DNA of 64,000 nucleotides from Chloroflexota bacterium. GTDB taxonomy: Bacteria > Chloroflexota > UBA11872. Under the pieces are notes generated by a model that saw nothing but the letters and a program-made list of their open reading frames with translations, did no database searches and was not told the DNA's origin. Shown in pieces: positions 17,066 to 52,193 of the stretch. Numbering within the stretch: position 1 is the stretch's first letter; every line of letters starts with the position of its first letter. The translations under genes and the position numbers were made by a program. Location: assembly GCA_965247475.1 (NCBI GenBank), contig OZ252016.1, positions 1,951,625-2,015,624 of the forward strand, written 5' to 3'.

Positions 17066-17647
17066 ATGCGAGAGATCGGCTGGCGCGGATTCGTGACACT
17101 GGCGGCGCTCGCGACCCTGGCCGTGCTGGTCGCGTGCGGCGCGACCACGACTGGAGAGGAACCTGGGCAGTTCTCCGTCGCGACCGGTCGAATGGCGACC
17201 GAGGCAGATCTCGTCTTGACCGAGGCCGACGCGGGCGGGGTCATTGACACCCCGACCTTTCAGGCGGACATCGGGCTATTGGACAAGCAGGGTGTCGTGC
17301 TCATGCTCGACGGCGACGACGCGTCGAGCCTGCGCTGGCGCTTCGCCGAGAAGCCCGATCCGTTCCTGGTCGAGTGGTACAAGGTGAACGATCAACTCGT
17401 CTTCGAGACGGGTGACCTGATCGGCGATCCGGCCACGGCCGCGAAGGTCCTGGAGTTCCGGCCCTTTGCGATCGGGGACACGACCTTCGTCCTCGAGCTC
17501 GTCGAGCAGGACCCCGCCAATCGGACCGGTGATCCGGCCAAACGGCTCGAGTACACCTTTGCCGTCTGCTACCAGCCAGCCAACGACCCATTTGGGTCGT
17601 TGGCGGCCGACTCTGACGTGGGCGGGTGCGTTGGAGAGGGCCGGTGA
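17066..17647 (+). CDS. Paralogous lipoprotein family member 1
   Basis: Lipobox LVAC; shared core LTEADAG...PAKRLEYTF; tail AVCYQPAND...GGCVGEGR. ATG 17066 follows GGAGG. Confidence 0.9.
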   Translation: MREIGWRGFVTLAALATLAVLVACGATTTGEEPGQFSVATGRMATEADLVLTEADAGGVIDTPTFQADIGLLDKQGVVLMLDGDDASSLRWRFAEKPDPFLVEWYKVNDQLVFETGDLIGDPATAAKVLEFRPFAIGDTTFVLELVEQDPANRTGDPAKRLEYTFAVCYQPANDPFGSLAADSDVGGCVGEGR

Positions 17648-18038
17648 TCTCAGGCCCGACGGACACCTGACGCCCTGCCGGAGGCGCTAGGGGCCAGGTT
17701 GGTCGGATCTCCCGCGTCATCGCGCGGCTCTCGCATGGCGCGGTGTCGCTGCCGGCCAACTCGCGCTCGCACGGTTCATAGCACGCCGGGCAGTCGAACG
17801 GCATAGCTGAACGCGAGTCGCTGGGGGCCGCTTCAGGGCGGCACGGCATCAGGCCGCGATACCTTCCGAATCCCAAGTCCAGGGGTTGAGACCGGCCCGG
17901 CCCTCAGACAGGACCTCGGCCTACTCCAACTCCTTCAGCGCCACGCGGCCCTGCTCGTCAGGAGGGTCACCGTCTCCCAGGGCGCCGGCGGAGATGCGCT
18001 CAGGCCATGGCCGCCATGAGCCGTCGCCCGGCGTATCG

Positions 18039-18605
18039 CTATGTCCCCGCGGCGTCCACCCACCTGCCGCTCTTCACAAAGGTCACCTCAAACATGTACT
18101 CGAGCCGCTTGGCCGGATCACCAGTCCGCTTGGCCGGATCGCGTTCGACCAGCTCGAGGATCAGGTTGGTCTGGTCGTGCACGTTGGCGCGGAATTCCAG
18201 GACCTTTGCCGCCGTGGTCGGATCGCCGATCAGCCCGTCGGTCTCGAAGGCCGGCAGGCCGTCCACTTTGTGCCACTCCATGACCGCGGTGTCGGGCTTC
18301 TTGGCGAAGCGCCAGCGCAGGGTCGAATCATCGTCGCCCGCTAGATGAATCTCCGTGCCCTTCTTGTCAGGGTTGTCGAGCTCCCATTGGTACCGGTGCG
18401 TCACGATGAGCTCGCCGGCATCGGCTTCCGTGAGAACCTGGTGGTCGACGACTGTCTGGCGTTGGTCGTCCTGGATCTGTTGGGTCGCGGTTGCGCCGGA
18501 AGCCTCGCTGGTCTCACCCTCCGCGCCGCAGGCCACCAGCGCCGCCAGGCTGGCAAGCGCGGCCATCCCTAGGAACACGCGGCGGGTCATCGTTGGCGTC
18601 GTCAC
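18039..18605 (-). CDS. Paralogous lipoprotein family member 2
   Basis: TRRVFL twin-arginine motif, LVAC lipobox, shared core. Confidence 0.9.
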   Translation of the reverse strand: MTTPTMTRRVFLGMAALASLAALVACGAEGETSEASGATATQQIQDDQRQTVVDHQVLTEADAGELIVTHRYQWELDNPDKKGTEIHLAGDDDSTLRWRFAKKPDTAVMEWHKVDGLPAFETDGLIGDPTTAAKVLEFRANVHDQTNLILELVERDPAKRTGDPAKRLEYMFEVTFVKSGRWVDAAGT

Positions 18606-18806
18606 GCTTGCCCCCTCGGCGAACCGAGTCGCCTTTCCCTCGGGTGACAGGACGTGAGTCTACTCCCCGACGCTTGCCGAGCCGCCGGCGGCGGGGCGCC
18701 AGGCGCGGGATTGGCGAGCGGCATCCTGTCGAGCCGCGCAGCGAGGATCGGCTACGATCCCGGCCAGGAAGCGCCGCCGCCGAGCCGCCGGGTGCAGAGG
18801 GGCCGC

Positions 18807-19991: not shown

Positions 19992-20013
19992 CCAGCTGAC
20001 GGGGAGCTGACGG

Positions 20014-20406
20014 ATGGCTCGATTGCGAGCCCGGCGGACGACGGCTCTGTTTGCCCTGCTTGCGCTGGGGGCAATGCTCCTGGCCGCGTGCGGGAGCGAG
20101 AGCACCGAGCCCGAGAGCTCGCAGCCGCCGGGCGTCTCGGATCGAGCGGCGTGCAACGCGGCGTTCGAGGAGCTGTCGCGGATCGCGGACTTGCGCGAAG
20201 AGGACCTGGACCCCGCGGTGCGCGCCTGCGCAACGATCGAGGATTGGGAAGCGGCGGCGGACGCTTTTCCAAACGTGCTGTCGCATTCGAACAAGGTGCT
20301 GCCCTTGTCCAATCGCTGCCGGGCGCTCAACGACCCGCCGATATGCCGGCAGCTCGGCGGATACCTGCGGAAGGCTGATCTCAACCGCGCCTTCAGCTTT
20401 CGGTAG
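20014..20406 (+). CDS. Small hypothetical lipoprotein with four additional Cys
   Basis: Signal ...LLAACGS; helical body with ACN, RAC, NRC, PIC. Confidence 0.65.
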   Translation: MARLRARRTTALFALLALGAMLLAACGSESTEPESSQPPGVSDRAACNAAFEELSRIADLREEDLDPAVRACATIEDWEAAADAFPNVLSHSNKVLPLSNRCRALNDPPICRQLGGYLRKADLNRAFSFR

Positions 20407-20479
20407 GCGGGTTTCCTCAGGCGGGAGGCAGGCGGCCGGCCGCTTCGAGGTGAGGCTCCAGGCGGCTCACCGCTCCTCT

Positions 20480-20641: not shown

Positions 20642-21580
20642 CTAGGGCTCGGCTAGGCTGACGGAGTCAAGGAACGGCCGTCCGTCGGTGGTCAGGTTCC
20701 ACTCCTGTCCGTCGGCTGCGATCGCGACGATCCGGCGCGAGTACTCACCCGGCGGAAGCGATTCCCCCGTCCTTTCCGAGACGATCCCACCCGTCAGCGG
20801 GAACGGCACTTTCGGCGACGGCGAGTCTATGTAGAACGTCTCGATAAAGGGCTGGACGGCGTCGCCGTCCAGCATCAACCGTACGTGAACGATCGGCTGG
20901 TTGAAGCTGCAACCGGCCGAGTTGACTGCGTCGGCGGCGGTGCGCAGGGGATCGTCCAGCGAGTCTAGGATCAGCCCGCGCTCGCCGCCGATCAACGTGC
21001 TCGCGCACTCGCCCGTCAGAACGGACGCGCCGGGGAGTCTCAGTCCGAACTCGTAGGAGACGTCGACGTTGCCCTGCTCCCACTGAGCGGTGACCCGGAC
21101 CTTGTAGTCGCCGGGCCCCTGATCCAGCTCGAACACGCGCAGCACCGTTGACAATCGCTTGAAATCGACGTGGACCTCGCCCGGCTCGGTCACCACGAGC
21201 GCGAACAGCCCCTTGGGCCGCGCGTCGGATTCGATTCGGACGGTCAGCGGCTCGTCGGGAGCGATCTCCGTGTAGGAGTCGACGCCGCGCCAAGGGGCCG
21301 GTTCCAAGCACTTGCGGTGAGGCTGATCGTCGACCGCCCAACAGGAGATCCCCCGCGAGCCCTCGATGGCCTCACCCTGGTACTCCAGAGACAGTACGGG
21401 CAGCGGCAACCCCGATCCTCCGGCCCGCTCGGTGGGCACAGCGCCGATCGCGGGACCGTCGCCGGGTTCCTCCACCGGCTGGCTCCGCCCGCATGCGGCG
21501 GCCAGCGTCAGCACCGATACCGCGATCAACGCCGCGACAGTTCTCAGAACCGAGGCGAGGGTATTGGCGCCAAGGTGCAC
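20642..21580 (-). CDS. Hypothetical lipoprotein (two beta-rich domains)
   Basis: Hydrophobic stretch ending LAAACG, coding-like composition. Start GTG 21580 is inferred. Confidence 0.65.
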   Translation of the reverse strand: MHLGANTLASVLRTVAALIAVSVLTLAAACGRSQPVEEPGDGPAIGAVPTERAGGSGLPLPVLSLEYQGEAIEGSRGISCWAVDDQPHRKCLEPAPWRGVDSYTEIAPDEPLTVRIESDARPKGLFALVVTEPGEVHVDFKRLSTVLRVFELDQGPGDYKVRVTAQWEQGNVDVSYEFGLRLPGASVLTGECASTLIGGERGLILDSLDDPLRTAADAVNSAGCSFNQPIVHVRLMLDGDAVQPFIETFYIDSPSPKVPFPLTGGIVSERTGESLPPGEYSRRIVAIAADGQEWNLTTDGRPFLDSVSLAEP

Positions 21581-21623
21581 CGACCGGTCTCGGACTAGAT
21601 TGGCGTCGTTGTCGCCAGCCGTC

Positions 21624-22220
21624 TCAATCACGCGTGATGACGAGCTCGATGGTCTCCGGCTCGACCGGCGGAGGCGCGGCGGCATCTCGGTAGAAGCCCA
21701 GCTTCTCGAACAGGCGGCGGCTTCGAGGGTTGTGTCTGTAGACGATCCCGTAGATCGCATCCGCACCCTCGTTCTCGAATCCGAAGCTCGTCAACAGCGA
21801 AACGGCCTCCGTGCCAAGGCCTTGGCTCCAGAGGTCCTTGGCGCCGATGACGATATCGATCCGGCGCACGTCTCTGCCGCGATGGCGATCGACGATGGCC
21901 TGCAGATTCATGCGCTGAAGCCAGCACTCGCCAATAGCTCGGGCCTCGAACTCGATGATGAAGCAGAAAGCATGCGCGCAGACGGACCGATAGATGGCCT
22001 GAGTCTCAGCGAGGCCGCACGGCTCGGCGCCAGGCCCATCGGTGAGGTACAGGACATCAGGATCGCGGTTCCAGGCGAGGAGCGAGGGCCAGTCATCCTC
22101 GGTCATCGGGCGCAGGCGGACCCGCTCGCCGTCGAGCACGACGTCGTGCGAAGCGATTCGTGCCGGCGGGTTGTCGCGCGTGAAGGCGAAGGCTGGCGTC
22201 ACTTCTGGTGAATCGGCCAT
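21624..22220 (-). CDS. GNAT family N-acetyltransferase (RimJ/RimL-like)
   Basis: ERVRLRPMTEDD, IGECWL, IDIVIGAKDLWSQGLGTEAV, NPRSRRLFEKLGF. Confidence 0.88.
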   Translation of the reverse strand: MADSPEVTPAFAFTRDNPPARIASHDVVLDGERVRLRPMTEDDWPSLLAWNRDPDVLYLTDGPGAEPCGLAETQAIYRSVCAHAFCFIIEFEARAIGECWLQRMNLQAIVDRHRGRDVRRIDIVIGAKDLWSQGLGTEAVSLLTSFGFENEGADAIYGIVYRHNPRSRRLFEKLGFYRDAAAPPPVEPETIELVITRD

Positions 22221-23570: not shown

Positions 23571-23608
23571 GTGTCTCCGGGTTTGCGGCGCTGCCTATGG
23601 GCGCGCCG

Positions 23609-24190
23609 TTAGCATGTGCTGGCGACGTCGAAGCACGGGGTCTGGCCCTGGCAACCACCGCCAGCTGCCCGTACCGACGGCTTGTAGCAGACGGCAAAGG
23701 TGTACTCGAGGCGCTTGGCCGGCTCGCCGGTTCGACTGGCGGGGTCCCGCTCGTCGAACTCCAGCACGAAGGAGGTGTCTCCAACTTTGACAGGCCGGAA
23801 CTCGAGGACCTTCGTCGCGATGCCCGGATCGCCGATCAGATCGCCCGTCTCGAAGGCGAGCACTTCGTTCACCTTGTACCACTCGACCAGGAACGGATCC
23901 GGCTTTGTCGCGAAGCGCCAGCGAAGGCTGGAGGCATCGTCGCCCTCCAGCGTCAGGATTACTCCCTTCTTGTCCAGCGCGCCGATGTCGGCTTGAAACG
24001 TCGGCGCGTTGATCGTCGTGCCGGCGTCGGCCTCGGTAAGGAGCAGATCCGCGTCGGTCACCATCTTGCCCGTCGCCACGGAGTATTGCCCGGGCTCATC
24101 TCCGACAACGCTCTCGCCGCAAGCGCCCAGCGTCGCGAGCGACGAGAGCGCCAGCAGCCCGAGCATTCGTCGCCGCTCTATCGCGCGCAT
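23609..24190 (-). CDS. Paralogous lipoprotein family member 3
   Basis: MRAIERRRMLG...LGAC; shared core; closest to member 1 (SVATG, PTFQADIG, AVCY); tail carries 4 Cys. Confidence 0.9.
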   Translation of the reverse strand: MRAIERRRMLGLLALSSLATLGACGESVVGDEPGQYSVATGKMVTDADLLLTEADAGTTINAPTFQADIGALDKKGVILTLEGDDASSLRWRFATKPDPFLVEWYKVNEVLAFETGDLIGDPGIATKVLEFRPVKVGDTSFVLEFDERDPASRTGEPAKRLEYTFAVCYKPSVRAAGGGCQGQTPCFDVASTC

Positions 24191-24627: not shown

Positions 24628-24682
24628 TGGGGCCACTGAGCCGGTGGTATCGTCGCGCGGTCACGCACCACGCGGAGACCCC

Positions 24683-26308
24683 ATGGCCCACCTGGACGCG
24701 ATCGAGTTGCTGATCGGCGACGCGCCGCAGTTCTTCTTCGACAACGGCCTCGTCGACGAGCTGCAGAACGTCACGCGCACGCTGCACCGGCCCGTCAACA
24801 TCGATGGCAACCCGCTCATCCAGCCGGACCGGCCCTGGGAGCACGTGACGTATTTCTCGTGCTCGGACTGGAGCCTCTGGCGCGACCGCGCGACCGGCCG
24901 GTTTCATTGCACGTACTCGGATCTCCAGTTGGATCGGGATCGACTGACCCGCGAGGGTGGCGCGTTCATCGATTGGGCCAACAGCCGCCACCGAGTCTGT
25001 TACGCGTACTCCGACGACGGTCTCGAGTGGGTCAAGCCCGCGCTGGGGCAGGTGCACGAGGACGGGCACGACACCAACATCGTCCTGGGCAGCGAAACCT
25101 ACGGGAACGTGTGGGGCCTATCCGTGCTCGAGGACCCGTTGGAAGACGATCCCGACCGACGCTACAAGGGGTTGCATTTCATGGTGCCGCCCGGCTACGC
25201 GGCGGCGCGCGACGTGCCGGGCGCCTACGTCCGGCTCGCCACCTCACCCGATGGGGCGCACTGGACGGTGGCCGACGAACAACCCTGGTTTGGGCGCGCC
25301 GGCGGGCGCCTGGGCGATGTGATGTCGTCCAGCTTCGATCCGGACACCGGCGCGTACCTGCTCTACACGCGGCACCCATGGATGGGGCTGGCACCGCGGA
25401 GCCGCGCGATGCACACGCGGGAACAGGGCGGGGACCCCGGATTCGATGTGGCGCTCGATACGCCCAACCGGCGCGCCCGGCGGCGCATATACCTCTCCGA
25501 AAGCCGCGACTACCTGCGCTGGAGCGATCCGCGCCTGATCCTGGCGCCAGAACCGGTGCTCGACAACGAGGACGACGCGTTCTACGGCATGAAGCCGATG
25601 CGGCTCGGCGGCCAGTGGATCGGGTTCCTGCAGGTGTTCCACATGGTGAGCAATACGCTCGACGTGCAGCTGGTCCACAGCCGCGACGGGCGCACCTGGC
25701 ATCGGTTGTTCCCTGGGCAGGCCTGGCTGCAGTGCGGCCCGGCGGGCGCCTGGGACCAGTTCTACACGAGTCTGCCGCGCATCCCGGATGTGGACGGCGA
25801 CGAGTGGTTGGTCTACCACGGCGGCGCCAAGAACCACCACGACTGGTGGATCGTGGGCCAGATCGAGGGGATGGACGCGCCGGAGGCGTGGGATTGGAAC
25901 GCGGTCGGCTTTGCCATGGGGTTGGCCAAGCTGCGAAGGAACGGGTTTGTGTCGCTCGACGCGAACCGCATGCGCGAGGGCATGATCCTCACGCAGCCTT
26001 GGGTGTCCGCGGGCGATCGGGTGGTCATCAATGCGGCGTGCGGTCCGGACGGCTACGTGAAGGTCGAGGCGCTGGACGTGCACGACCAAGTGCTGCCTGG
26101 ACGGACGCGCGACGATTGCGACGCCTTCACCGGCGATGCGATCGAGCATGTGGTGACGTGGCGCGGCGACCCGGATCTGCCGGTGGAGGGGCAAGACACC
26201 GGCGAGGTCTACGGCCGCCGGCTGCCATACCGGCGGCTGCGCTTCATCCTGCGTGACGCGGCGGTCTATTCGTTCCAGATCGCCAGCTCGGGCGACGCCG
26301 GGGACTAG
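24683..26308 (+). CDS. Hypothetical protein, probable beta-propeller glycoside-hydrolase-like fold
   Basis: Repeated (T)SxDG.xW Asp-box-like motifs (YSDDGLEW, TSPDGAHW, ESRDYLRW, HSRDGRTW) and LRRNGFVSL before a C-terminal beta domain. Confidence 0.7.
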   Translation: MAHLDAIELLIGDAPQFFFDNGLVDELQNVTRTLHRPVNIDGNPLIQPDRPWEHVTYFSCSDWSLWRDRATGRFHCTYSDLQLDRDRLTREGGAFIDWANSRHRVCYAYSDDGLEWVKPALGQVHEDGHDTNIVLGSETYGNVWGLSVLEDPLEDDPDRRYKGLHFMVPPGYAAARDVPGAYVRLATSPDGAHWTVADEQPWFGRAGGRLGDVMSSSFDPDTGAYLLYTRHPWMGLAPRSRAMHTREQGGDPGFDVALDTPNRRARRRIYLSESRDYLRWSDPRLILAPEPVLDNEDDAFYGMKPMRLGGQWIGFLQVFHMVSNTLDVQLVHSRDGRTWHRLFPGQAWLQCGPAGAWDQFYTSLPRIPDVDGDEWLVYHGGAKNHHDWWIVGQIEGMDAPEAWDWNAVGFAMGLAKLRRNGFVSLDANRMREGMILTQPWVSAGDRVVINAACGPDGYVKVEALDVHDQVLPGRTRDDCDAFTGDAIEHVVTWRGDPDLPVEGQDTGEVYGRRLPYRRLRFILRDAAVYSFQIASSGDAGD

Positions 26309-26651: not shown

Positions 26652-27188
26652 ATGCGAGCGATAGGCCGCCGACGGATGCTCGGCTTGGTTGCGATTTCGG
26701 CGGTCGCCGTCCTCACCGCCTGCGGCGAAGCCGGTGCGACCGCCGACGATGACGACGGCGTGATCTACTCGACCGTCCGTCCGCGCCTGGTCCAGCACAT
26801 GCTGCTGACCGAGGCCGACGCCGGCAAAGTCATCGAGCTGGAGGTCTTCGTTGTCAGCATCCTGGAGCCGAACAAGAAGGGCACCGAGATCGAGCTCACC
26901 GGTGACGACGCTTCCTCCCTGCGCTGGCGCTTCGCCGAGAAGCCGGACCCGTGGGTCGTCGAGTGGGTCAAGGTGGATGGGCAGGACGCCTTCGAGACCG
27001 ACGGGTTGATCGGCGACACGGCCACCGCCGCCAAGCTCTTGGAACTACACGGCATCGGCCGCGGCGAGACATCCCTGGTGCTTGAGCTGGTCGAGATGGA
27101 CCCGGCCAAGCGCACCGGCGAGCCGGCGAAGCGCCTCGAGTACAGCTTCAGCTTGGCCGGGACCACCGATCTCTTCACGCCGAAGTAG
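26652..27188 (+). CDS. Paralogous lipoprotein family member 4
   Basis: MRAIGRRRMLG...LTAC; shared core; short tail SLAGTTDLFTPK. Confidence 0.9.
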   Translation: MRAIGRRRMLGLVAISAVAVLTACGEAGATADDDDGVIYSTVRPRLVQHMLLTEADAGKVIELEVFVVSILEPNKKGTEIELTGDDASSLRWRFAEKPDPWVVEWVKVDGQDAFETDGLIGDTATAAKLLELHGIGRGETSLVLELVEMDPAKRTGEPAKRLEYSFSLAGTTDLFTPK

Positions 27189-28079: not shown

Positions 28080-28664
28080 ATGCGGCATCCGATAATTCGA
28101 ATGGTGGCCGCCGCGGCGATCGCGGCCGTAAGCCTGCTGGTCGTGGCTTGCGGAGAAGGCGCGGATGCCCCCGGCGCGGCGGAGGACGAGAGCCCAGCCC
28201 GTTCGGCGGCGACCAGTCGCCAGCAATCCGAGAACCTGGTGCTCACCGAGACCGATGCGGGACAGGCGATCGAGATACCGATCTACAACTACGACATCGG
28301 GCTGCCCGACAAGAAGGGGCCCGAGCTCGCGCTGACGGGCGACGACGCGTCGTCGCTGCGCTGGGCCTTGGTGCAGAAGCCGGACACCCTCTTCGTCGAA
28401 TGGGCCAAGGTTGATGGCAAGCTCGCGTTCGAGACGGATGGCCTGATCGGCGACCCGACCACGGCCGCCAAGGTCCTGGAATTTCGGGGCAACGCGGCGG
28501 GGGAGACAACAGTGGTCGTGGAGCTGGTCGAGCGCGACCCGGCCAGTCGCGCCGGCGAGCCCGCGAAACGGCTCGAATACACATTCGCGGTGAGCGTGCG
28601 CGATGACACCGGGAGGCTGCAGGCGTTCCCCGGCCAGTCGGAGGCGATAAGGGGATACAAGTAA
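28080..28664 (+). CDS. Paralogous lipoprotein family member 5
   Basis: VVAC lipobox; shared core; tail AVSVRDDTGRLQAFPGQSEAIRGYK. Confidence 0.9.
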   Translation: MRHPIIRMVAAAAIAAVSLLVVACGEGADAPGAAEDESPARSAATSRQQSENLVLTETDAGQAIEIPIYNYDIGLPDKKGPELALTGDDASSLRWALVQKPDTLFVEWAKVDGKLAFETDGLIGDPTTAAKVLEFRGNAAGETTVVVELVERDPASRAGEPAKRLEYTFAVSVRDDTGRLQAFPGQSEAIRGYK

Positions 28665-28740: not shown

Positions 28741-29313
28741 ATGGCGAGGCAACTGATCGGCCGACGCACGTTCCTGGCGACGGCTGCGCTCGTGGGCCTC
28801 GCGGTGCTTGGCGCCTGCGGCGCCGCGAGCAGCGGCGATGGAGCGACCGTTCGATCCGCCGCCACGGGTCGCGTGCTGCCGAATAACACCGTTCTCACCG
28901 AGGCCGACGCGGGCCAGCCGATCGAAGTTGCGCGGTACATCTACGACATCGGGCTGCCCGACAAGAAGGGGTTGGAGATACGGCTCACCGGCGACGACGC
29001 CTCGACGCTTCGGTGGCGCTTTGTCGACAAGCCTGATCCGTTACTGATGGAGTGGCACGCGGTCGACGGCGCGCCCGCGTTCGAGACCGACGGGCTGCTC
29101 GGCAACCCCACCACCGCGTCGAAGCTGCTCGAGTTCCGCGCCACCGGTGTGGGTGAAGGGGTGCTCGCGTTCGAACTGGTCGAACAAGCGCCGTCCGAGC
29201 GCACGGGACCGCCCGCCAAGCGGTTGGAGTTCCCGTTCAAGGCCTTCTGGCAGGACGACGGCACCATCCGGGAAGCGGTCCCGTGCTACGCGGGCTACGG
29301 GTCCTGCCGCTGA
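28741..29313 (+). CDS. Paralogous lipoprotein family member 6
   Basis: GRRTFL twin-arginine motif, LGAC; shared core; tail ...VPCYAGYGSCR. Confidence 0.9.
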   Translation: MARQLIGRRTFLATAALVGLAVLGACGAASSGDGATVRSAATGRVLPNNTVLTEADAGQPIEVARYIYDIGLPDKKGLEIRLTGDDASTLRWRFVDKPDPLLMEWHAVDGAPAFETDGLLGNPTTASKLLEFRATGVGEGVLAFELVEQAPSERTGPPAKRLEFPFKAFWQDDGTIREAVPCYAGYGSCR

Positions 29314-33327: not shown

Positions 33328-33483
33328 GGGTCCCTCCCGGTCCTGCCGTGCATCATCGGAACACGCATCGTATTACGGAACGTGGCCGCGCCGCTTGGCC
33401 GCGCAAGCGGCGCGGGGTGAGAATCGAGCGGCCCCGAGCGGCCCCGAGCGGCCGCGATGCCCCGCCCCACAACGAGGAGCCAC

Positions 33484-35520
33484 GTGCCCAACCAGCTCGC
33501 GAACGAGACCAGTCCGTACCTGCTGCAGCACAAGAACAACCCGGTGGATTGGTTTCCATGGGGAGAGCGCGCGCTGGCGAAGGCGCGGTCGGAGAACAAG
33601 CCGATCTTTCTGAGCATCGGGTACGCGGCGTGCCACTGGTGCCACGTGATGGAGCACGAGTCGTTCGAGGACTCCGAGACTGCTCAAGACCTCAACGAAC
33701 GGTTCGTCGCTATCAAGGTCGACCGCGAGGAGCGGCCCGATCTCGACCAGATCTACATGAGCGCCGTGCAGCAGCTGACCGGCCAGGGCGGGTGGCCGAT
33801 GAGCGTCTTCCTGACGCCGGAGGGGAAGCCGTTCCACGGCGGCACGTACTTTCCGCCCGAGCCTCGAATGGGAATGCCGTCCTTCCGGCAGGTGCTCACG
33901 GCCGTCGCCGACGCCTGGCGCGACCGCCCCGCTGATCTGCTCACGGGCGCGGAGCGGCTGACCATGGCGATCGACGAGGCGGGCCTGTCGGACTTCGCGT
34001 CGGCGGCGATGACGCAGGCCGACCTGGACGCGGCGACCAGCCTGATGGTCAGCGGGCACGATCGGCAGCACGGCGGCTGGGGAACGGCGCCGAAGTTCCC
34101 GCAGCCGATGACGCTCGAATACCTGCTCCGCCGGCACCTGGCCACCGGTGAGGAACTGCCGCGCGCGGTGATCGACCGCACCCTGCACTCGATGGCCCGA
34201 GGGGGCATCTACGATCAGCTCGGCGGCGGCTTCCATCGCTACAGCGTCGATGCCGAGTGGCTGGTGCCGCACTTCGAGAAGATGCTCTACGACAACGCGC
34301 AGCTCGCGCGTCTGTACGTGCACGCGTGGCAGGTGACGGGCGACGCGCTCTACCGCCGGGTCGCGGAAGAGACGCTCGACTACGTGCGGCGCGAGATGAC
34401 GCACCCCGCGGGCGGGTTCTACAGCACACAGGACGCGGACTCCGAGGGCGAGGAGGGCAAGTACTTCGTCTGGAGCGCGGAGGAAGTCCGCCAGGTGCTG
34501 GGCGACGACGCCGAGCTGTTCATGGACGGCTACGGGGTGTCGGTCGGCGGCAACTGGGAAGGCGCGAACATCCTGCACGTGACTCGTGACCCGGATGTGC
34601 TGGCGTTCCGACACGAACTCGATACGCCGGCGATCGAGCCAAAGCTCGCCGACGCCCGGCGGCGGCTGCTCCAGGCCCGCGAGCCGCGGGTTCGACCAGG
34701 GCTGGACGACAAGATCGTGACCGCGTGGAACGGGCTGATGCTGGCGGCATTCGCCGGCGCGGCGCGGGCGCTGGGGCGTGACGACTACCGCGCAACCGCG
34801 ATCGCCGCCGGCGAGTTTGCGCTCGAACACCTATGGCGCGACGGAGGCCGGCTGTATCGAATCTGGAAGGACGGCGAGGCGAAGCTCAACGGCTATCTGG
34901 AGGACTATGCGTTCCTCGCGGAAGGGTTCATCGAGCTCTACGAGACCACGTTCGACGAGCGCTGGTTCGAGGCCGCCCGCCGGTTGTCGGACTCGATGCT
35001 GGAGCACTTTGCCGATCCCGACGGCGGCTTCTTCGACACGAGCCACGACCACGAGGCGCTGCTGATTCGACCCAGAGATCTGCAGGACAATGCGACGCCG
35101 TCAGGCAACGGGATGGCCGTGACCGTGCTGACCCGCATGCACGCACTGACCGCCGACGCTCGCTACCTGCGCAGCGTGGAGGCGGCGTTGCCATTGGTGG
35201 GGCAGGCCGCGCGCAGATTCCCCACCGCGTTCGGTCAGTGGCTGGTCGCCGCTGACTCTGCGCTCGGCGGGGCGCGTGAGGTCGCCATCACGGGCCACGC
35301 CGACGACGCCGCGACGCACGCGCTCATCAAGACCGCATTCGCCAGCTACCGTCCCCGGCAGGTGGTGGCCGCCGGGCCGCCCGATCACAGATCGATGGTG
35401 CCGTTGCTTGCGGACCGACCACAGCTGAACGGCAAAGCAACGGCGTACGTGTGTCAGAATTTCGTGTGCAACATGCCGGTGACCGAGCCTGCCAAGCTGG
35501 CCGAGCAGCTGGGCGCCTAG
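33484..35520 (+). CDS. yyaL: Thioredoxin domain-containing protein YyaL/SSP411 family
   Basis: [62 protein letters not shown]. Confidence 0.95.
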
Positions 35521-41642: not shown

Positions 41643-43355
41643 TCAGGGGGACGCGGGGCTCGCCTCGGGAGCGTGGTACCTGACGTGCAACTCGAGTTTC
41701 TCTACAAGCATCGAATCCGGCTCATCCCGCAGGCTCCGCGTCAGCCGCACGCCGACGAGATTCTCGCCAACCGCGAAGAGCTCGGGGCGCGCCGGGAAGA
41801 CGAGCCACCCGCCATCGATGTGGGGCCCCTGCAGACGTGCATTGTTCGCGCGCACTTCGAGGTGGCGTTCGATCCCACAGCTCGGCGGTCGGTTCATGAG
41901 CGCGCGGTCATGCGGGTGCCCGATCTCGGCGAGCTTCACCGCCGGGAGGCGCCGGAGGCGCTCCGGCGCTTCCGGCGCCGGGTCGGACAACAGCACGCGC
42001 AGGTTGATCGAATCCACGTGCTCCGCTTCCCCCACGAGGTCGTCGGCCACGTAGAGGCTCAGCAGCGTATCCGGCCGGCCGTCGCCGGCCAGCGGCGCCG
42101 GCAACTGCCCGAACATGTTGGTGTTGGAGTACATCCAACGCGGTGTGGTCCAGTCCTCGGGGTTTGGGACCATCCTCGGGCCGTGTCCGCCGCCGCGTCG
42201 CTGCACCACGAAGACCTTGTCCTTGCGGCGCAGGTTCTCGGGGTCGTGCATCTCCCGATAGGCCTGATGGTGCGTCGCCGAAGCGGGCGCGTTGAGTGCG
42301 CTCAACTTCAGCCGCTCCGCGTCCTCTGGCGGCGCGTGCTCCCAGTTGAACGTCTGGATCCCGTCCACACCCTGATGCCACCAGTTCGCGAACACGCCCC
42401 GGAACACTTCGATGGGCGGCCACATATAGCCGTCCGACGAGTGATGATCGTCGATCGAGGCATAGAGCTTGATCGGAGTCCCGGACGTGATGCGGCGGAA
42501 CGCGATCACGTCCACGTCGAACGACCGGCAGCCCATGACCATCAGATCTACCAGCAGCTCACGCGCCCAGGTCTCGACGTCCAGGCCGTCGAAGTGGCAG
42601 CCCATCAAGTTCTCAGGGATGCGCACGGCCAGCAGCAGCGGGCGCCCACGTTGGCTTCCGATCTCCAGCAGCATTGTCCGCAGCTTGCGCATGAACTCCG
42701 TCATGCGGTCGCGCAGCTCCCACTGTCGCCCCGGTGGTAGCACCGGGCAGTTCCGCGCGAAGTCAAGCGCGATGCCGTCGAAGTCGTAGTCCTCGGCCAG
42801 CTCACGCAGGATGCGCAGTTTGTACTCGTGCACCCCGTCGACAGCGAAGTTCCAGAACCCGTTCTCGCGCCAGGTGTGGATGAGCCAATCGGGATGCTCT
42901 TCCTTCATGGGGATCCGGCTGACGCGGCCCAGCTCGGTGTCCGAACCGTTGATCCGGTAGAGGTAGAAGTTCTCGAAATCGCGTGCCTGTGAGGCCTCCA
43001 GGAAGATGCGGACGATGTTCATGCCGGCGTCCGCCCAGGCCCGATATGCGGGTGCGTCTAGGAGCGGTCGGACCTTGCTTGGGAAGACGCACTGATGGCC
43101 CTCATCCCAGTCCCACCACATGCTGTCGATGTGGACGGCCGGATCATCGGCATAGGTGAACTTCCATTCCAGCAGGGCGTCAACGGCCTTGGTCGGGAAG
43201 AAGTCCGGACCGTCGCCCATGATGACGTCGAAGTGGACGATGATGCGGCGTTGGCGACGTATGCCAGCTAGGTGCTCCGCCGAGAGCGTGACCGCGCCGG
43301 ACGCGGCGTCGACCTCGCCGGTACGGCCGCCGTCGCGCGTGCTTGGCGCATCCAT
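41643..43355 (-). CDS. Hypothetical TIM-barrel glycoside-hydrolase-like protein (GHL10/DUF187-like)
   Basis: WNFAVDGVHEYKLRILRELAEDYDFDGIALDFAR, DGLDVETW, GVDGIQTFN. Confidence 0.65.
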   Translation of the reverse strand: MDAPSTRDGGRTGEVDAASGAVTLSAEHLAGIRRQRRIIVHFDVIMGDGPDFFPTKAVDALLEWKFTYADDPAVHIDSMWWDWDEGHQCVFPSKVRPLLDAPAYRAWADAGMNIVRIFLEASQARDFENFYLYRINGSDTELGRVSRIPMKEEHPDWLIHTWRENGFWNFAVDGVHEYKLRILRELAEDYDFDGIALDFARNCPVLPPGRQWELRDRMTEFMRKLRTMLLEIGSQRGRPLLLAVRIPENLMGCHFDGLDVETWARELLVDLMVMGCRSFDVDVIAFRRITSGTPIKLYASIDDHHSSDGYMWPPIEVFRGVFANWWHQGVDGIQTFNWEHAPPEDAERLKLSALNAPASATHHQAYREMHDPENLRRKDKVFVVQRRGGGHGPRMVPNPEDWTTPRWMYSNTNMFGQLPAPLAGDGRPDTLLSLYVADDLVGEAEHVDSINLRVLLSDPAPEAPERLRRLPAVKLAEIGHPHDRALMNRPPSCGIERHLEVRANNARLQGPHIDGGWLVFPARPELFAVGENLVGVRLTRSLRDEPDSMLVEKLELHVRYHAPEASPASP

Positions 43356-43443
43356 GTCACAACCTTGCGGCGGTGCTCGGGTCACCGATCAGGCCGTCCG
43401 CCTCAAAGGCGGGACGGCCGTCAACCGCGTACCACTTCGAGCG

Positions 43444-44001
43444 TCAGAGACGGTCGCATAGCGGACAAGTCTCGTGGATGACGGGGGTTTCTTGGTAGAT
43501 CACCTCGAAAGGAAACTCCAGGCGTTTGGCAGGCGGACCGGTGCGCTTGGCCGGGTCACGCTCGACCAGCTCGAAGACCAGCGTGCCCGTCCCGGCGGAA
43601 CCGCCGTGGAACTCCAGGAGCTTCGCGGCTCTGCTCGGATCGCCGATCAGGCCGTCGGTCTCAAACGCCGGCTGGCCGTCCACCGCGAACCACTCGATCA
43701 CCAGTGGGTCTGGTTTCTCGACGAAGCGCCAGCGCAGCGTGGCGGCAGAGTCGCCGCTGAGCTGGACCTCCAGGCCCTTCCTGTCCGGCAGCCCGATGTC
43801 ATAGATGAACCGCTCGATCTCAATCGGCGTTCCGGCGTCGGCCTCGGTGAGCAACGTGTGCCCCAGCTGCTCCCGCAGCGTGGCCGCGGAACGGCCATTC
43901 CCGTCGGACTGGCCGGCGGATGGGCTGCCCTCGCCACAGGCGACCACCGCAGCTAGCGCCACGGCAGCCGCCGCAAGTCTGAGCGGAGATCCCGCCGTCA
44001 C
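43444..44001 (-). CDS. Paralogous lipoprotein family member 7
   Basis: VVAC lipobox; shared core; tail ...HETCPLCDRL. GTG 44001 follows GGAGG. Confidence 0.9.
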   Translation of the reverse strand: MTAGSPLRLAAAAVALAAVVACGEGSPSAGQSDGNGRSAATLREQLGHTLLTEADAGTPIEIERFIYDIGLPDRKGLEVQLSGDSAATLRWRFVEKPDPLVIEWFAVDGQPAFETDGLIGDPSRAAKLLEFHGGSAGTGTLVFELVERDPAKRTGPPAKRLEFPFEVIYQETPVIHETCPLCDRL

Positions 44002-44266
44002 CGCCTCCCCTTTTCCAAGCGCCACGTGATCCGTGAGACCGGCTGCGTCCCCGCCGGCATTCTATTCTCGGTGCGGCCGGCAGCCGCGTGTGGCGATCCG
44101 GGGTCGCTCGGATGAACGTTCGCCTTGCCTGGGACGGCCAGTAGCGCCGAGCGATTGGAACACCGGAAACGGCGCGTCAGATCAAGCGCCCCACTTCCTC
44201 CCCCAAGCTCCGATCGAAGTTCGGCGTGCGCATCTGGACCACGAGACGATAGGCCGGAACGCGGGA

Positions 44267-45376
44267 CTACGGGCGGGAGGCGAGGGAGCTTCCGGCGTCG
44301 ATGAGCTGAAGGCGAGCCTGGCGGCCGTCGGCGAAGCCGAGCCTCTGGAGCTCGGCGAGGTCCACGTGACCGCCTGGACCCAGCGCGCCGGTGCCGAACC
44401 ACCAGAATCCTTCCGGCTGGTAGCGGGCCACATCCTCAACGTCGATGGCCCAGTTCCGCGGGAGCGCGAACGGCAGCGGTGGCTGCGGGCTCCGCCACGC
44501 ACGGTTCCAGGTCATGACGCCGCGGCCCAGGTAGAACGTGCGTAGACCCAGCTCACGCGGCTGCTCGAGACAGAGGTCGGCCACCTGCCGGCGGCGGCGC
44601 GAGCGATCGTAGTCGTAGGTGACCACCGCGAAGTCCAGGCCGGCGGCAGTGTATGCCGGCAGGTCGACGACCTGGACGGTCCCAGACTCGGCGTTGACGA
44701 CCTCACAGATCGTGGCCAGATCGCCCGAGAACCCACGCGCGCGGACCGCCTGTTCGATCGCGCGCAGGACTTCCATCCGCCTGAAACTCGTGTAGGCGCG
44801 GTAGGCGGGCAGGTGATCGCCCTCGGCCGGAGGCCGGTCGTGGGCGCGGGCCCAGCGGTCGTAGGGCCGGACTCGGTGCGGGCCGAAGGTGTCGCCGAAC
44901 TCCAACTCGACCAGCAACCCGTCGGCCTGCGGGAACAACGTAACGATCTCGTCGAAGATCTCTACGGCGCGCTCCGCCACGTGGGGCATATCCAGGTCAT
45001 AGACGCGGACCTCCCGCGGCTCGCCGTCCACCCACGGCTCGAAACGCCGGTGCTCGGAGTGCCCGTACGCCCGGGGGACGAAGTAGGTGGCCACGGCGCC
45101 CAGCCGGACCTTGATATGGCGCCGACGGGCTTCCCGCAGCACCGTGTGGATGAGCTCGTTGTCGCTGGCGATGGCGGCGTTGCGGGGGTCCTGATCGAGC
45201 CAGGGGAGCCGCGAGCGGTAACCGGTGGTGAGCCACTTGACGATCATGACCAGCGAGTTCATGCCGGCGGCGGCCATGTCGTCCAGCAGCTCGAGATAGT
45301 GGTCGCGCCGGTAGTGCTCCATCCCACCCGCACCCGGGCAGGTGTAGTCCCAGAAGCCGTACTCACGCAGTGCCAT
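44267..45376 (-). CDS. Hypothetical protein, possible TIM-barrel hydrolase
   Basis: LLDDMAAAGMNSLV, FPQADGLLVELE; long ORF with good GC3-type composition. Confidence 0.6.
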   Translation of the reverse strand: MALREYGFWDYTCPGAGGMEHYRRDHYLELLDDMAAAGMNSLVMIVKWLTTGYRSRLPWLDQDPRNAAIASDNELIHTVLREARRRHIKVRLGAVATYFVPRAYGHSEHRRFEPWVDGEPREVRVYDLDMPHVAERAVEIFDEIVTLFPQADGLLVELEFGDTFGPHRVRPYDRWARAHDRPPAEGDHLPAYRAYTSFRRMEVLRAIEQAVRARGFSGDLATICEVVNAESGTVQVVDLPAYTAAGLDFAVVTYDYDRSRRRRQVADLCLEQPRELGLRTFYLGRGVMTWNRAWRSPQPPLPFALPRNWAIDVEDVARYQPEGFWWFGTGALGPGGHVDLAELQRLGFADGRQARLQLIDAGSSLASRP

Positions 45377-45519
45377 GGCGCCATCCGCTTGGGGATCTCC
45401 GGAGTATCGCGGATCGCGGCGTTGCGGGGGGCTGCGTACTCAGAATGCCGGCGACGGAGCACCTAGGGTCAGGATCGACTTCCCCTGATGGGCGCGCCGA
45501 CGATGCACGGTGACGGATA

Positions 45520-45622
45520 GGCTCTCGCCGGTCCGGGGGGCATGAGATTCCTCGCCTGCGGCTGGGAATGACAGTGAGGTTCGTTTGGCCCTCGTCGCGC
45601 CGAGCGCTCCTCCGAATGACAC
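45520..45622. repeat. Intergenic repeat (B module plus partial)
   Basis: CTCGCCGGTCCGGGGGCATGAGATTCCTCGCCTGCGGCTGGGAATGACA. Confidence 0.75.
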
Positions 45623-45713
45623 CGGCGGCAGGCCGTGGTCCGGCAGATCGATGCAAGCCGGACCGAGCGGTATGGTGCGCGCGCGGGTGGGTTACGGAAA
45701 GGCTGTGTTCGCA

Positions 45714-46679
45714 ATGGCAAGCTTTGATCTCTTCGATCCGGATGCCGCGCCCAAGGGTGTGGCCACGCACCTGAAGACGCCGTTCCTCGAGGACGGCCGA
45801 CTCGACCAGGCGTCGTACGAGCGAACGGCGCGCCATTCGGTCGAGGTGGGAAGCACGCTGATCATCGTCGGTCAGCGCGGCACCGAGACGCTGGCGCTCT
45901 CCGAGGCGGAACGCTACCGAAGCCTGGAAATCGCGCTGGACGTGTGCGCCGATCGCGTGCCGGTGGTATCCACGGCGACGGGCGCGTCGATCGCAGACGT
46001 CGCGGCGACCGCTCACCGTATGGAGCAGATGGGAGCGGACGCGATCTCGGTGCTGGCGCCAGCCTGGATCAAGAGCTCCGAGGATGTGATCACCGGTCTG
46101 AAGGCGGTGGGTGACAAGCTCACGGTTCCGATGTTCGCGCGCTGCAGCGACTGGGGCAGCACGATGACGGTGGATCAGCTGGCTCGCCTCCCGAGCGAGA
46201 TCCCGAACGTTCGCTATCTGAAGGAAGAGTGCCATCCGTGCCCCCGGCGGGTGAAGGCCCTGCTCGAAACGCCGGGCGGCAAGCAGTACATCCGCATCAT
46301 GGTCGGGACGAGCCCGCCGGGACCGCTGCTGGGGTATGTGGCCGGCGCACGGCTGTTCATGTGCGCGGCGGACGTGCTGGAGCCGTATATCGCCGTATTC
46401 GATTTGCTCGAGGCGGGCGACATCGACGAGGCCCGGCGCATCCACAATTTGGTCGGCGCGCTCGGCTACTTCAAGAACTACATCGGCGGCCAATTCAACA
46501 ACAAGATGATCATGCACTGGCGCGGGCTGTTCGATTCGGGGCGCAAAGCGTCGCCGACCTGGGAGTCCGGGCTGCGCGATCTGACCCCCGAGGAAGCGGA
46601 CGAATTGACCGTGCTGCTGGAGCCGCTGCTCCCGTACTATCTTGCGTATCCCCCGGTTCGGCCGAGTGATGGCGGTTAG
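45714..46679 (+). CDS. Dihydrodipicolinate synthase (DapA/NAL)-family aldolase, divergent
   Basis: TPFLEDGRLD, LSEAER, RVPVV, GADAISVLAP, RYLKEE (catalytic Lys position). Confidence 0.82.
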   Translation: MASFDLFDPDAAPKGVATHLKTPFLEDGRLDQASYERTARHSVEVGSTLIIVGQRGTETLALSEAERYRSLEIALDVCADRVPVVSTATGASIADVAATAHRMEQMGADAISVLAPAWIKSSEDVITGLKAVGDKLTVPMFARCSDWGSTMTVDQLARLPSEIPNVRYLKEECHPCPRRVKALLETPGGKQYIRIMVGTSPPGPLLGYVAGARLFMCAADVLEPYIAVFDLLEAGDIDEARRIHNLVGALGYFKNYIGGQFNNKMIMHWRGLFDSGRKASPTWESGLRDLTPEEADELTVLLEPLLPYYLAYPPVRPSDGG

Positions 46680-46871
46680 CGGAGCCGACGACGCGGCCGG
46701 CCCGTGCATCCGCCGGCGGGCGGCACTTCAAGCCCAAGGCAGGCGCTCACCGCCGCCACCGAATACCCGAGTCAGCCCTGCCGGCCCGCTCGGGAGCGTA
46801 TCCCTCCCAAGTGCCCGCACCCTGACACCCAGGAATGACAGCAGGCGGGCGGTGACGCTGCGGTCGGCGAC

Positions 46872-50010: not shown

Positions 50011-50586
50011 ATGGCGCTCACGACGCTCCTCAGACGCGGTCTAATCGCCGCTGTTGCCATGACCGCCATCGTCGTAGTGGGGGCCTGCGGCGACGGCCAA
50101 ACGTCCGCGTCGACCGACGCCGCCGCCGAGGCCGGTTCGGGCAGCGGGGGACGGTCGATCGTCACCGGGCGCGAGCAGATGGCGAATCTCGTCCTGACCG
50201 AACAGGACGCCGGCCGTCTGATTGAGGCGTCCTTCTATCGCTACGACATCGGGCAGCCGGATCAGAAGGGCGTCGAGATCAAGCTCTCGGGCGATAACGC
50301 TTCGACGTTGCGATGGCGCATGGCCGAGCTGGCCGATCCGCTGATCATGGAATGGTATGCGATCGACGGGAAGCTGGCGTTCGAGACCGACGGGCTGCTG
50401 GGCGACCCGGCCACGGCGGCGAAGCTGGTCGAGCTGCGCGGCAACTCGATTGGTGAGGCGACCTTCGTGTTCGAGTTGGTCGAACGCGACCCGGCCAAGC
50501 GCACGGGGCCACCGGCCGAACGGCTGGAGTTCATGTTCACGATTCCGAGGCCGAGGATCAATCCCGGCCTGGACGCGCCGATGTAG
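50011..50586 (+). CDS. Paralogous lipoprotein family member 8
   Basis: LRRGLI...VGAC; shared core; tail TIPRPRINPGLDAPM. Confidence 0.9.
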   Translation: MALTTLLRRGLIAAVAMTAIVVVGACGDGQTSASTDAAAEAGSGSGGRSIVTGREQMANLVLTEQDAGRLIEASFYRYDIGQPDQKGVEIKLSGDNASTLRWRMAELADPLIMEWYAIDGKLAFETDGLLGDPATAAKLVELRGNSIGEATFVFELVERDPAKRTGPPAERLEFMFTIPRPRINPGLDAPM

Positions 50587-50625
50587 ACGGATCGGGCCGA
50601 TCGCAACGACGCACGATGAGGAACG

Positions 50626-50648
50626 GCCCCTTCGACAGGCTCAGGACG
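50626..50648. repeat. Single A module
   Basis: CCCCTTCGACAGGCTCAGGACG. Confidence 0.7.
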
Positions 50649-50712
50649 GGCTGATCGCTGCTATGTCGGGGAGAGGCCCTCGTCGGTCCGATGGGCGCGC
50701 CGCTCCCGACCC

Positions 50713-51468
50713 GTGACCGCCGCCGGCAGGTGGGCAGCCCACCATAGATTCGTGGCTGGCACGATCCGACGCGCCGTACTCATTCCGACCGCGCTCGCCT
50801 GCGCGCTGCTGACGGCCTGCGGGGATACGGTCGGCATCGGCCCAGAGGCGTTCGATCCGGATCGATTCCAGATCATGATGGTGGAGCGGCCGTGGGAGAC
50901 GATCCGCGGCGTCACGACCTCGACATCACCGTCGGCCGGGATCGATATGCGTGTCGAGTTCGCGGTCGATCGTGTCCGGCGGATGGCGTGGTCGAAGGGA
51001 GAGGTCAGGTCCGACGGCGAACGTCAGATCGCGGTCGAAGCCATCCTGATTGAGAACCGGGCCTATCTGCGCGGGCAGACGCTTCGCGGAAGCACCGGCT
51101 GGATCACCGCGGAGCGGGGCGAGCGCTTCGGGCCGTTGCACGTGGTGGCCATGGCCGCCGCGGACCCGTTCAGCACAGCGCATCTGGCGCGCAGGTGGTC
51201 GGCGTTCTCGGTCGTGGACTGCGGCACGGCGCGCACGTGCTTCGTGCTGCGCGCCGACGTCGCGCCCGACGACCGGCTGCTCGTGGATACCGACAGTTAC
51301 CTGCCGGTCGGTTTCTCGAGCAATCGCGCGCGCGGCCGGACGCAGCTGGAGGCCAGCGTGGAGTGGAATGCGGACGTGCGCGTCGAGGCCCCGCTAGACG
51401 CACGCGAGGTCAGCGCCGAGGCGTTCGCGGCCGCCCATGCGGCACTCCTGTTCGACGCGATTCCGTGA
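50713..51468 (+). CDS. Hypothetical lipoprotein (possibly LppX/LolA-like beta fold)
   Basis: LLTAC lipobox; ILIENRAYLR...GWI...LLVDTDSYLP pattern recalls LppX-type folds. Start uncertain. Confidence 0.6.
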   Translation: MTAAGRWAAHHRFVAGTIRRAVLIPTALACALLTACGDTVGIGPEAFDPDRFQIMMVERPWETIRGVTTSTSPSAGIDMRVEFAVDRVRRMAWSKGEVRSDGERQIAVEAILIENRAYLRGQTLRGSTGWITAERGERFGPLHVVAMAAADPFSTAHLARRWSAFSVVDCGTARTCFVLRADVAPDDRLLVDTDSYLPVGFSSNRARGRTQLEASVEWNADVRVEAPLDAREVSAEAFAAAHAALLFDAIP

Positions 51469-51596
51469 TGCGTCGCTTCGCGAGCGGGGACATCGCGACC
51501 GGCCGGCGGGCCTCGTGCCCGCGGCACGCCGCGTCTAAACTGCCGTGGTGCAGTGACGGTGCGCGGCTGCCACGGGCGCGCAGGGGGCGATGGACG

Positions 51597-52193
51597 ATGA
51601 GGCGAGCGGGCAATCGACGCGGCTTCGCGGCCGTTGCCGCATTCGTTTGCCTGGCCGTGCTGGTCGCGTGCGGCGACGGTGCGGCCAACGGTGGTGCAGC
51701 GGCCGACGCGCCAATCGACCGCTCGGCCGCGACGGGTGCCGAGGCCGGGAGCCAGCACCAGATCCTCACCGAGGACGACGCCGGCGGTGATGTGATCGAC
51801 GTGCCGTTTTTCTTTGTCGACATCGGCCTCCCCGACAAGAAGGGCCTGGAGATCTACTTGACGGGCGACGATGCGTCGACGCTGCGATGGCGGCTCGCGC
51901 AGAAGCCTGATCCGGTCTTCATGGAGTGGTACGCGGTGGACGGCGAACCCGCGCTCGAGACCGACGACCTGGTCGGCGACCCGGCGACCGCGGCGAAGGT
52001 TCTGGAGTTTCGCGGCGCCGGCCACGGCGAAACGAGCGTCATTCTCGAACTCGTCGAGCGTGATCCGGCCAACCGAACGGGCGAGCCCGCCAAGCGACTC
52101 GAATACAACTTCGCGATCTCCACGTTCACGCCGCGCTGCAATCCGTCCACCGGGTGCCCAGAGGGCAGCGCCGGCCGCACGCTGGTGGCGTAG
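51597..52193 (+). CDS. Paralogous lipoprotein family member 9
   Basis: NRRGF...LVAC; shared core; tail ...PRCNPSTGCPEG... Confidence 0.9.
   Translation: MRRAGNRRGFAAVAAFVCLAVLVACGDGAANGGAAADAPIDRSAATGAEAGSQHQILTEDDAGGDVIDVPFFFVDIGLPDKKGLEIYLTGDDASTLRWRLAQKPDPVFMEWYAVDGEPALETDDLVGDPATAAKVLEFRGAGHGETSVILELVERDPANRTGEPAKRLEYNFAISTFTPRCNPSTGCPEGSAGRTLVA

Follow-up and report, generated by a model that had tools for sequence, protein, structure and literature searches.

Nine full-length paralogous genes encoding predicted lipoproteins are found in a 64,000-nucleotide stretch of contig OZ252016.1 from a Chloroflexota bacterium (hereafter the window, to which positions refer unless the genome is named). 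The genes were located by six-frame motif searches and extraction of open reading frames (ORFs), and their products are numbered members 1-9 in window order. The alignment of the nine sequences (A1) is divided into four parts: a signal peptide with its lipobox, a linker, a core, and a C-terminal tail. The core comprises approximately 115-120 residues with 40 invariant columns, and the linker between lipobox and core is a low-complexity, disordered sequence of Gly, Ala, Ser, and acidic residues. The tails start after PAKRLE[YF]xF, are 12-28 residues in length, and are unalignable across the nine paralogs. A preliminary description of this DNA drew attention to unrelated tails of this length after PAKRLE.F, to paired Cys in five of the nine, and to a variable strand following the LTEADAG motif (the post-DAG segment); all tails and post-DAG segments quoted therein were found again at the nine loci, and the five Cys-bearing tails each contain two or four Cys. 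The evidence described below renders it fairly probable that the family is a surface-tethered chagasin-fold module with one constant and one paralog-specific pole, in which the tail belongs to the variable pole as a structured element, closed in most cases by disulfides. The family features in the window are listed below.

17066-17647, forward strand: member 1; lipobox Cys codon at 17135-17137; post-DAG segment VIDTPTFQADI at 17240-17272; tail AVCYQPANDPFGSLAADSDVGGCVGEGR at 17561-17644, with two Cys, the tail and both Cys being kept by orthologs
18039-18590, reverse strand: member 2; twin-arginine-like n-region TRRVFLG; post-DAG segment ELIVTHRYQWE at 18381-18413; Cys-free tail EVTFVKSGRWVDAAGT at 18042-18089, identical at 15 of 16 positions in ortholog P0058 (core identity 83%)
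23609-24190, reverse strand: member 3, the target of AlphaFold model 1; post-DAG segment TTINAPTFQAD at 23987-24019; tail AVCYKPSVRAAGGGCQGQTPCFDVASTC at 23612-23695, with four Cys (two loops), identical at 27 of 28 positions in ortholog P0004 (core identity 90%)
26652-27188, forward strand: member 4; post-DAG segment KVIELEVFVVS at 26826-26858; Cys-free tail SLAGTTDLFTPK at 27150-27185
28080-28664, forward strand: member 5; post-DAG segment QAIEIPIYNYD at 28263-28295; Cys-free tail AVSVRDDTGRLQAFPGQSEAIRGYK at 28587-28661, identical at 20 of 25 positions in ortholog P0057
28741-29313, forward strand: member 6; post-DAG segment QPIEVARYIYD at 28915-28947; tail KAFWQDDGTIREAVPCYAGYGSCR at 29239-29310, with Cx6C, identical at 21 of 24 positions in ortholog P0086, which retains both Cys
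43360-43437, reverse strand: 26-residue in-frame relic of a further copy, KWYAVDGRPAFEADGLIGDPSTAARL, directly downstream of member 7 and before a 580-residue glycoside hydrolase (GH)-like gene
43444-44025, reverse strand: member 7; post-DAG segment TPIEIERFIYD at 43798-43830; tail EVIYQETPVIHETCPLCDRL at 43447-43506, with CxxC
50011-50586, forward strand: member 8; post-DAG segment RLIEASFYRYD at 50215-50247; Cys-free tail TIPRPRINPGLDAPM at 50539-50583
51597-52193, forward strand: member 9; post-DAG segment DVIDVPFFFVD at 51789-51821; tail AISTFTPRCNPSTGCPEGSAGRTLVA at 52113-52190, with Cx5C
63761-64000, forward strand: tenth copy, running past the window end, with only its signal peptide, lipobox, and linker inside the window; its tail in the genome is EVMVPKDCCRIQFS, with vicinal CC

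Membrane anchor and chagasin-type fold

A signal peptide and a lipobox of the form L/V-[VGT]-A-C-G are found in all nine window copies and in nearly all copies of the genome, which also encodes Lgt (PF01790, 147 bits) and the signal peptidase II LspA (PF01252, 92 bits). Judged from these sequence features, the family is one of membrane-tethered lipoproteins. Many copies (members 2, 3, 4, 6, and others) have a twin-arginine-like n-region (RRRMLGL, TRRVFLG, GRRTFLA) and others have none; export of the family may be split between the twin-arginine translocation (Tat) and Sec pathways.

The mature form of member 3 was modelled by AlphaFold2 with 67 family sequences. The core has a predicted local distance difference test score (pLDDT) above 95 and comprises eight strands (b0, residues 26-28; b1, 36-40; b2, 54-58; b3, 66-72; b4, 79-84; b5, 104-110; b6, 114-124; b7, 136-146). 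Foldseek searching against the PDB placed chains of chagasin and of inhibitors of cysteine peptidases (ICP) at all of ranks 1-11 (E 1e-7 to 6e-4, target-normalised template modelling (TM) score up to 0.74), including EhICP2 (the best match, E = 1e-7, TM approximately 0.7), amebosin, chagasin, and Pseudomonas ICP. At the sequence level, two of the nine copies match Pfam Inhibitor_I42 (PF09394) at all, and the match is sub-threshold (E = 0.005, 17.4 bits against a cut-off of 27.2); the family profile retrieved no chagasin from the PDB sequences, the only match being to a signal peptide. On the structural evidence, the body of the family is a chagasin-type immunoglobulin (Ig)-like beta sandwich.

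The Ig-like fold and the weak Pfam signal are shared with chagasin/ICP proteins (MEROPS I42, PF09394), i.e., chagasin of Trypanosoma cruzi, EhICP2 of Entamoeba histolytica, amebosin, and ICP of Pseudomonas aeruginosa. Unlike these, the family has an extra N-terminal strand, the TEADAG loop, and replacements of all three inhibitory motifs, as well as 39 paralogs per genome with paralog-specific, mostly Cys-paired C-terminal tails. To our knowledge, the chagasin sequence, to which alone this comparison of tails extends, has no such tail. The inhibitory motifs of chagasin are NPTTG in loop L2, GXGG in L4, and RPW/F in L6 (PMC2607524). At these positions, all copies of the family carry GDDAS[ST]LRW, FETDGLIGDP, and ERDPAxRTGxPA, and the canonical motifs are absent. 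Tight-binding inhibition of C1 cysteine peptidases, the criterion of chagasin/ICP, is by analogy only a candidate activity for the family. No PF00112 (Peptidase_C1) gene occurs in the own genome, so that a C1 target, if there is one, would have to be foreign.

Among lipid-anchored chagasin-like proteins, the closest functional precedent is Cpi1 of Pseudomonas, a lipoprotein that is anchored in the membrane and inhibits papain-like proteases of plants; it is also a precedent for a tethered inhibitor directed against host rather than self proteases. Cpi1 retains the canonical chagasin motifs, and the abstract describing it mentions no multi-copy family (bioRxiv 10.64898/2026.06.02.729523). The chagasin fold, the lipobox anchor, and display on the cell surface are common to both, whereas the loops are rewritten and the paralogs massively expanded in the present family.

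Polarity of the domain and conservation of the tails

The polarity of the domain was assigned from the strand order in AlphaFold, taking the sandwich strands as alternating in direction. The even-numbered loops (TEADAG, GDDASS, the long ETDGLIGDP loop, and ERDPAxRTGxPA) are located on one pole, which is that of the chagasin L2/L4/L6 wedge, and on the opposite pole are the odd-numbered loops, together with the C-terminal tail and the point at which the N-terminal linker enters. The two poles differ in conservation. Mean entropy is 0.88 bits in the wedge-side loops versus 1.61 in the opposite loops (p = 0.008), and the strand halves nearer each pole follow the same division (0.84 on the wedge side versus 1.72 on the opposite side, p = 0.003). 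The wedge-side loops are almost invariant among paralogs (TEADAG, GDDASxLRW, FETDGLIGDP, and ERDPAxRTGxPAKR), and the paralog-specific pole comprises the pre-DAG stretch, the loop after the DAG strand, the PFLV loop, the beta5-beta6 turn, and the tail. The strand after LTEADAG is variable, as initially described, although it is only one of several such segments, with the pre-DAG stretch, the PFLV loop, and the beta5-beta6 turn being equally or more variable. Both Cys positions outside the tail that could act as partners of a tail Cys, in the post-DAG loop and in the beta5-beta6 turn, are on the variable pole.

The last beta strand runs two to four residues into the tail in both AlphaFold models (through AVCY in member 3, as assigned by DSSP), and position 2 of the tail is V or I in 32 of 36 copies. 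The first two to four residues of the tails, as delimited after PAKRLE.F in the preliminary description, thus still belong to the last strand. Judged from strand direction and the entropy contrast, the tail would lie packed against the variable pole. A shared Pro-Gly turn motif in the tails was considered and found unconvincing (16 PG dipeptides versus 11.3 expected).

Conservation of the tails was assessed in 40 cross-genome best-match pairs with a core identity of 78-95%, which were used as orthologs. The core is 86.7% identical, the tail 74.5%, and the linker 63.8%. The ratio of nonsynonymous to synonymous substitution rates (dN/dS), obtained by the Nei-Gojobori method from ten ortholog pairs with DNA sequences (L031-L040), is 0.205 in the core (1151 codons), 0.221 in the tail (214 codons), and 0.459 in the linker (276 codons). 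Some tails, including those of members 2 and 3 listed above, are more conserved than their own core. Purifying selection acts on the tails as strongly as on the core, and the ortholog identities and dN/dS values indicate that they are ancient and paralog-specific. They were initially termed hypervariable, which is correct between paralogs and incorrect between orthologs; across the 40 pairs, they are clearly neither unconserved nor drifting neutrally.

Candidate origins of the tail sequences were also considered. Searching the tails by tblastn against all frames and the downstream DNA of the other copies yielded only noise, and blastn searching for links between tail classes yielded only true relatives or overlapping convergent neighbours. 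An origin by frameshift or by shift of the stop codon was rejected, there being no out-of-frame or beyond-stop homology between tail classes. An origin by a diversity-generating retroelement was rejected because the tails are identical or near-identical in orthologs of 90-98% identity; a search for the corresponding reverse transcriptase gave only two sub-threshold matches, both outside the window.

Cysteine pairing and the role of the tail

Among the 39 full-length copies in the genome, the number of Cys beyond the lipobox is zero in 16, two in 20, and four in three, and is never odd. The conserved core of these copies contains no Cys, and nearly all non-lipobox Cys are located in the tail. 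Random placement of the same 50 Cys yielded an all-even outcome in none of 200,000 trials, and the parity remains significant when approximately 13 tail classes are treated as independent (P <= 2e-5). Sorted by (core, tail) Cys count, the 92 full-length relatives from other genomes comprise 42 with (0,0), 36 with (0,2), nine with (0,4), four with (1,1), and one with (0,1). The count is thus even in 91 of 92; the one exception is P0018, whose tail is visibly frameshifted. Of the 40 ortholog pairs, 38 have the same number of Cys in both sequences, and Cys are gained or lost in pairs: relative P0055 has lost both, and P0092 differs from its Cys-free relatives by two gained Cys, the first at EFR-C in the beta5-beta6 turn and the second at position 2 of the tail. 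The spacings in the tails range from CC and CxxC up to C-x28-C, and the last Cys is located within two residues of the C-terminus in 14 of the 22 Cys-bearing tails. Disulfide loops and metal sites had both been proposed for the paired Cys. The even-Cys rule, which holds in 39 of 39 and 91 of 92 sequences, fits the former: the tails are probably disulfide-closed, and the Cys pairs would be disulfides rather than metal ligands, with metal sites retained as the lesser rival for the CxxC and CC tails.

In the preliminary description, the tail was also proposed to co-vary with the post-DAG strand and to form one surface with it. A partial Mantel test of covariation gave no significant association of tail distance with post-DAG distance given core distance (r = 0.06, p = 0.18); higher correlations with the tail were obtained for the pre-DAG stretch (r = 0.27) and for the beta5-beta6 region (r = 0.19). 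The PTFQAD strand and the AVCY tail that members 1 and 3 share are clade markers. A core tree calculated without the strand and tail columns unites all xVC[YF] tails and all [AT]P[TS]F strands in one clade, with support of 99 in the Shimodaira-Hasegawa-like approximate likelihood ratio test (SH-aLRT), and, as both members belong to this clade, the two features are shared by descent. The idea of a common surface survives in part, through the position of both segments on the same variable pole, as deduced from strand direction and entropy, and through Cys pairing in one clade, but not through statistical co-variation. In that clade (genome copies 466488, 468536, and 1929529, with orthologs P0075-P0077), each sequence has exactly one post-DAG Cys (VF-C-HV or WF-C-FD, where TFQAD has its Q) and a single Cys at the end of the tail, which looks like what a disulfide from tail to loop would leave in the sequence.

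In the reading favoured here, the tail would continue the last strand for two to four residues (x-[V/I]-x-x) and then make an excursion of 8-28 residues, which one or two disulfides would close in approximately 60% of paralogs. These would be mostly within the tail, often at its very last residues, and would sometimes reach the post-DAG loop or the beta5-beta6 turn. The variable pole may act as a paralog-specific recognition or docking surface, and the constant pole may perform a job common to all copies, probably the binding of one target class in the manner of a protease-inhibitor wedge.

Several observations weigh against this reading. The remainder of the tail has a pLDDT of approximately 50-58 in both AlphaFold models, a value which formally agrees with the tail disorder that the preliminary description named as a refutation, but which is weak evidence because each tail has few sequences in the alignment, and is regarded as uninformative for such shallow, paralog-specific segments. 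The parity statistics rest on approximately 13-14 independent tail classes and not on 39 independent genes. The CxxC and vicinal CC tails (member 7 and copies 1247706, 811586, 888182, and 2015385) fit metal binding at least equally well, and 16 of the 39 copies are Cys-free, so that stapling is not essential to the family. Searches for DsbA (PF13462, PF01323), DsbB (PF02600), and VKOR (PF07884) gave no match in the 97%-complete genome. Finally, the recognition role of the variable pole is purely inferential. Regarding oxidation, a rough census of the other predicted lipoproteins of the genome found them to be Cys-poor, with 25 of 57 having no Cys and the rest being divided into 23 even and nine odd, compared with 1125 even and 1290 odd counts among the other ORFs. 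Given this bias, exported Cys pairs look like a general property of the organism. Oxidative folding of its exported proteins is plausible, and the strict even-Cys rule together with the lack of recognisable Dsb or VKOR points to an oxidative-folding route other than these in this bacterial group.

Among the alternatives, the tail might be a structural cap only, by which the C-terminus is stapled to the domain against exoproteases and the open end of the sandwich is stabilised, with no paralog-specific binding. The frequent position of the last Cys at the extreme C-terminus agrees with such a cap, as do the Gly- and Pro-rich composition of the tails and the unrelated metabolic nature of the neighbouring genes, with no partner protein known. 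A cap would, however, not need approximately 25 unrelated sequences each held at a dN/dS of approximately 0.2, Cys-free tails such as that of member 2 are equally conserved, and the entire pole is variable rather than the tail alone; we regard this explanation as unlikely. Very doubtful is a reading of the paired Cys as ligands of Zn, Cu, or Fe or as redox-active CxxC centres, above all in the short CxxC, Cx3-6C, and CC tails. It would account for the CPLC, CPHC, CFTC/CFHC, and CC motifs, several of which are near His (HETCPLC, SCPHC, PHQCTGPC), and would agree with the missing Dsb and VKOR machinery. Two thiols alone, however, seldom make a stable site, and in the commonest class, xVC[YF]...C, the Cys are spaced approximately 11-28 residues apart with variable sequence between them, the range being 12-28 when neighbouring tail classes are counted as well. 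Moreover, the switching of partners to the post-DAG loop or the beta5-beta6 turn resembles cross-linking, and the even-Cys bias extends to other exported proteins of the genome.

Functionless read-through produced by drift of stop codons or frameshifts would explain why the tails are unalignable between paralogs (mean distance approximately 1.0), the low AlphaFold confidence, and the frameshifted tail of P0018. It is extremely improbable in view of a tail dN/dS at the level of the core and half that of the linker, tails that are 75% identical where cores are 87% identical, the even-Cys rule, and the lack of out-of-frame or beyond-stop tail homology. Scarcely more credible is the alternative raised in the preliminary description, by which a constant carrier would release the tails as peptide cargo, either signalling peptides or products akin to ribosomally synthesised and post-translationally modified peptides (RiPPs). 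Short, Cys-rich, variable C-terminal segments do superficially resemble RiPP core peptides. The junction, however, is within the last beta strand, as the V or I at tail position 2 attests, and lacks a conserved cleavage motif; none of the nine copies has a gene for a modifying enzyme, a protease, or a transporter beside it; the precursors are exported lipoproteins, with 16 of 39 tails Cys-free; and a single tail Cys can pair with a Cys of the body. The tails are therefore functional parts of the variable face, and neither random read-through nor released peptides.

The D-region of type IV pilins is a C-terminal disulfide-bonded loop that forms a variable, exposed recognition or antigenic surface. 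The present tails resemble it as short, variable, probably disulfide-closed C-terminal segments on a conserved scaffold; the two are unrelated in fold and in the pathway of export and assembly, and D-regions vary between strains, whereas the family tails vary between paralogs and are conserved between strains. A further-reaching proposal, which we consider decidedly unlikely, is that the approximately 39 copies are surface-tethered, two-faced Ig-fold adaptors, in which the near-invariant, acidic, wedge-derived face would bind one common partner or target class, and the opposite face, with four variable loops and the stapled tail, would provide each paralog with a distinct, selected specificity. 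If true, such adaptors would constitute a germline "binder library" in a small-genome uncultured bacterium, and the chagasin scaffold would have been re-used for something other than inhibition of C1 proteases. The architecture described further above, with a constant pole, a variable pole, and a selected, probably disulfide-closed tail, turns an anonymous multi-copy family into a testable system, in which the tail and the loops of the opposite pole are the places to seek paralog-specific partners and the invariant loops are the place to seek a common target.

Distribution and genomic setting

In the own genome (2.71 Mb, one contig), the family profile has 43 matches, 39 of which are full length, and 13 of the 39 lie within an 88-kb stretch at 1.929-2.017 Mb. 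One unannotated, lineage-only surface-protein family thus makes up approximately 1.5% of the genes in a 2.7-Mb genome. No family member was found in any of 40 genomes of the same family or order. A HMMER profile search against 1.84 billion cluster representatives yielded 23 matches, essentially all of which are the family itself, and word-based searches retrieved approximately 110 members from a handful of related metagenome-assembled genomes, none of them named and none with a Pfam domain. A scan of the genome contigs for sequence relatives outside the family gave no match. P0124, a protein of 3477 residues from another metagenome, has five weak matches (E = 2e-5) to family profile positions 118-154 and may contain a repeat domain remotely related to the beta5-beta6 region.

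The relic at 43360-43437 is evidence of copy turnover at that spot. Genome copies 466488-467042 and 468536-469090, which are 2 kb apart, have identical cores and tails and differ by one or two residues in the linker and signal peptide; they look like a very recent duplication within the family. An eleventh copy, convergent to the tenth, is located immediately beyond the window end.

Unrelated metabolic genes adjoin the nine window copies, with products such as sugar kinases, GH32, glycoside-hydrolase-like proteins, and oxidoreductases, and no gene for a peptide-maturation enzyme, protease, or transporter is adjacent to any of the nine. Five large ORFs with strong coding GC content at third codon positions (GC3) and no Pfam family, at 24644-26305 and 50713-51465 on the forward strand and at 41646-43385, 44270-45376, and 45366-46709 on the reverse strand, are interleaved with the lipoprotein copies and with sugar-metabolism genes (GH32, PfkB kinases, DHDPS-like). 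The large ORF of 580 residues has faint GHL10/GH18-like matches. The large unannotated neighbours at 24644-26305 and 41646-43385 were considered as possible paralogs and rejected, being unrelated to each other. The window further encodes a cytoplasmic DUF255/thioredoxin-like protein at 33457-35517 and two predicted lipoproteins without a Pfam match, at 20014-20403 on the forward strand and 20645-21766 on the reverse strand, which are unrelated to the family and contain four Cys each in their mature part.

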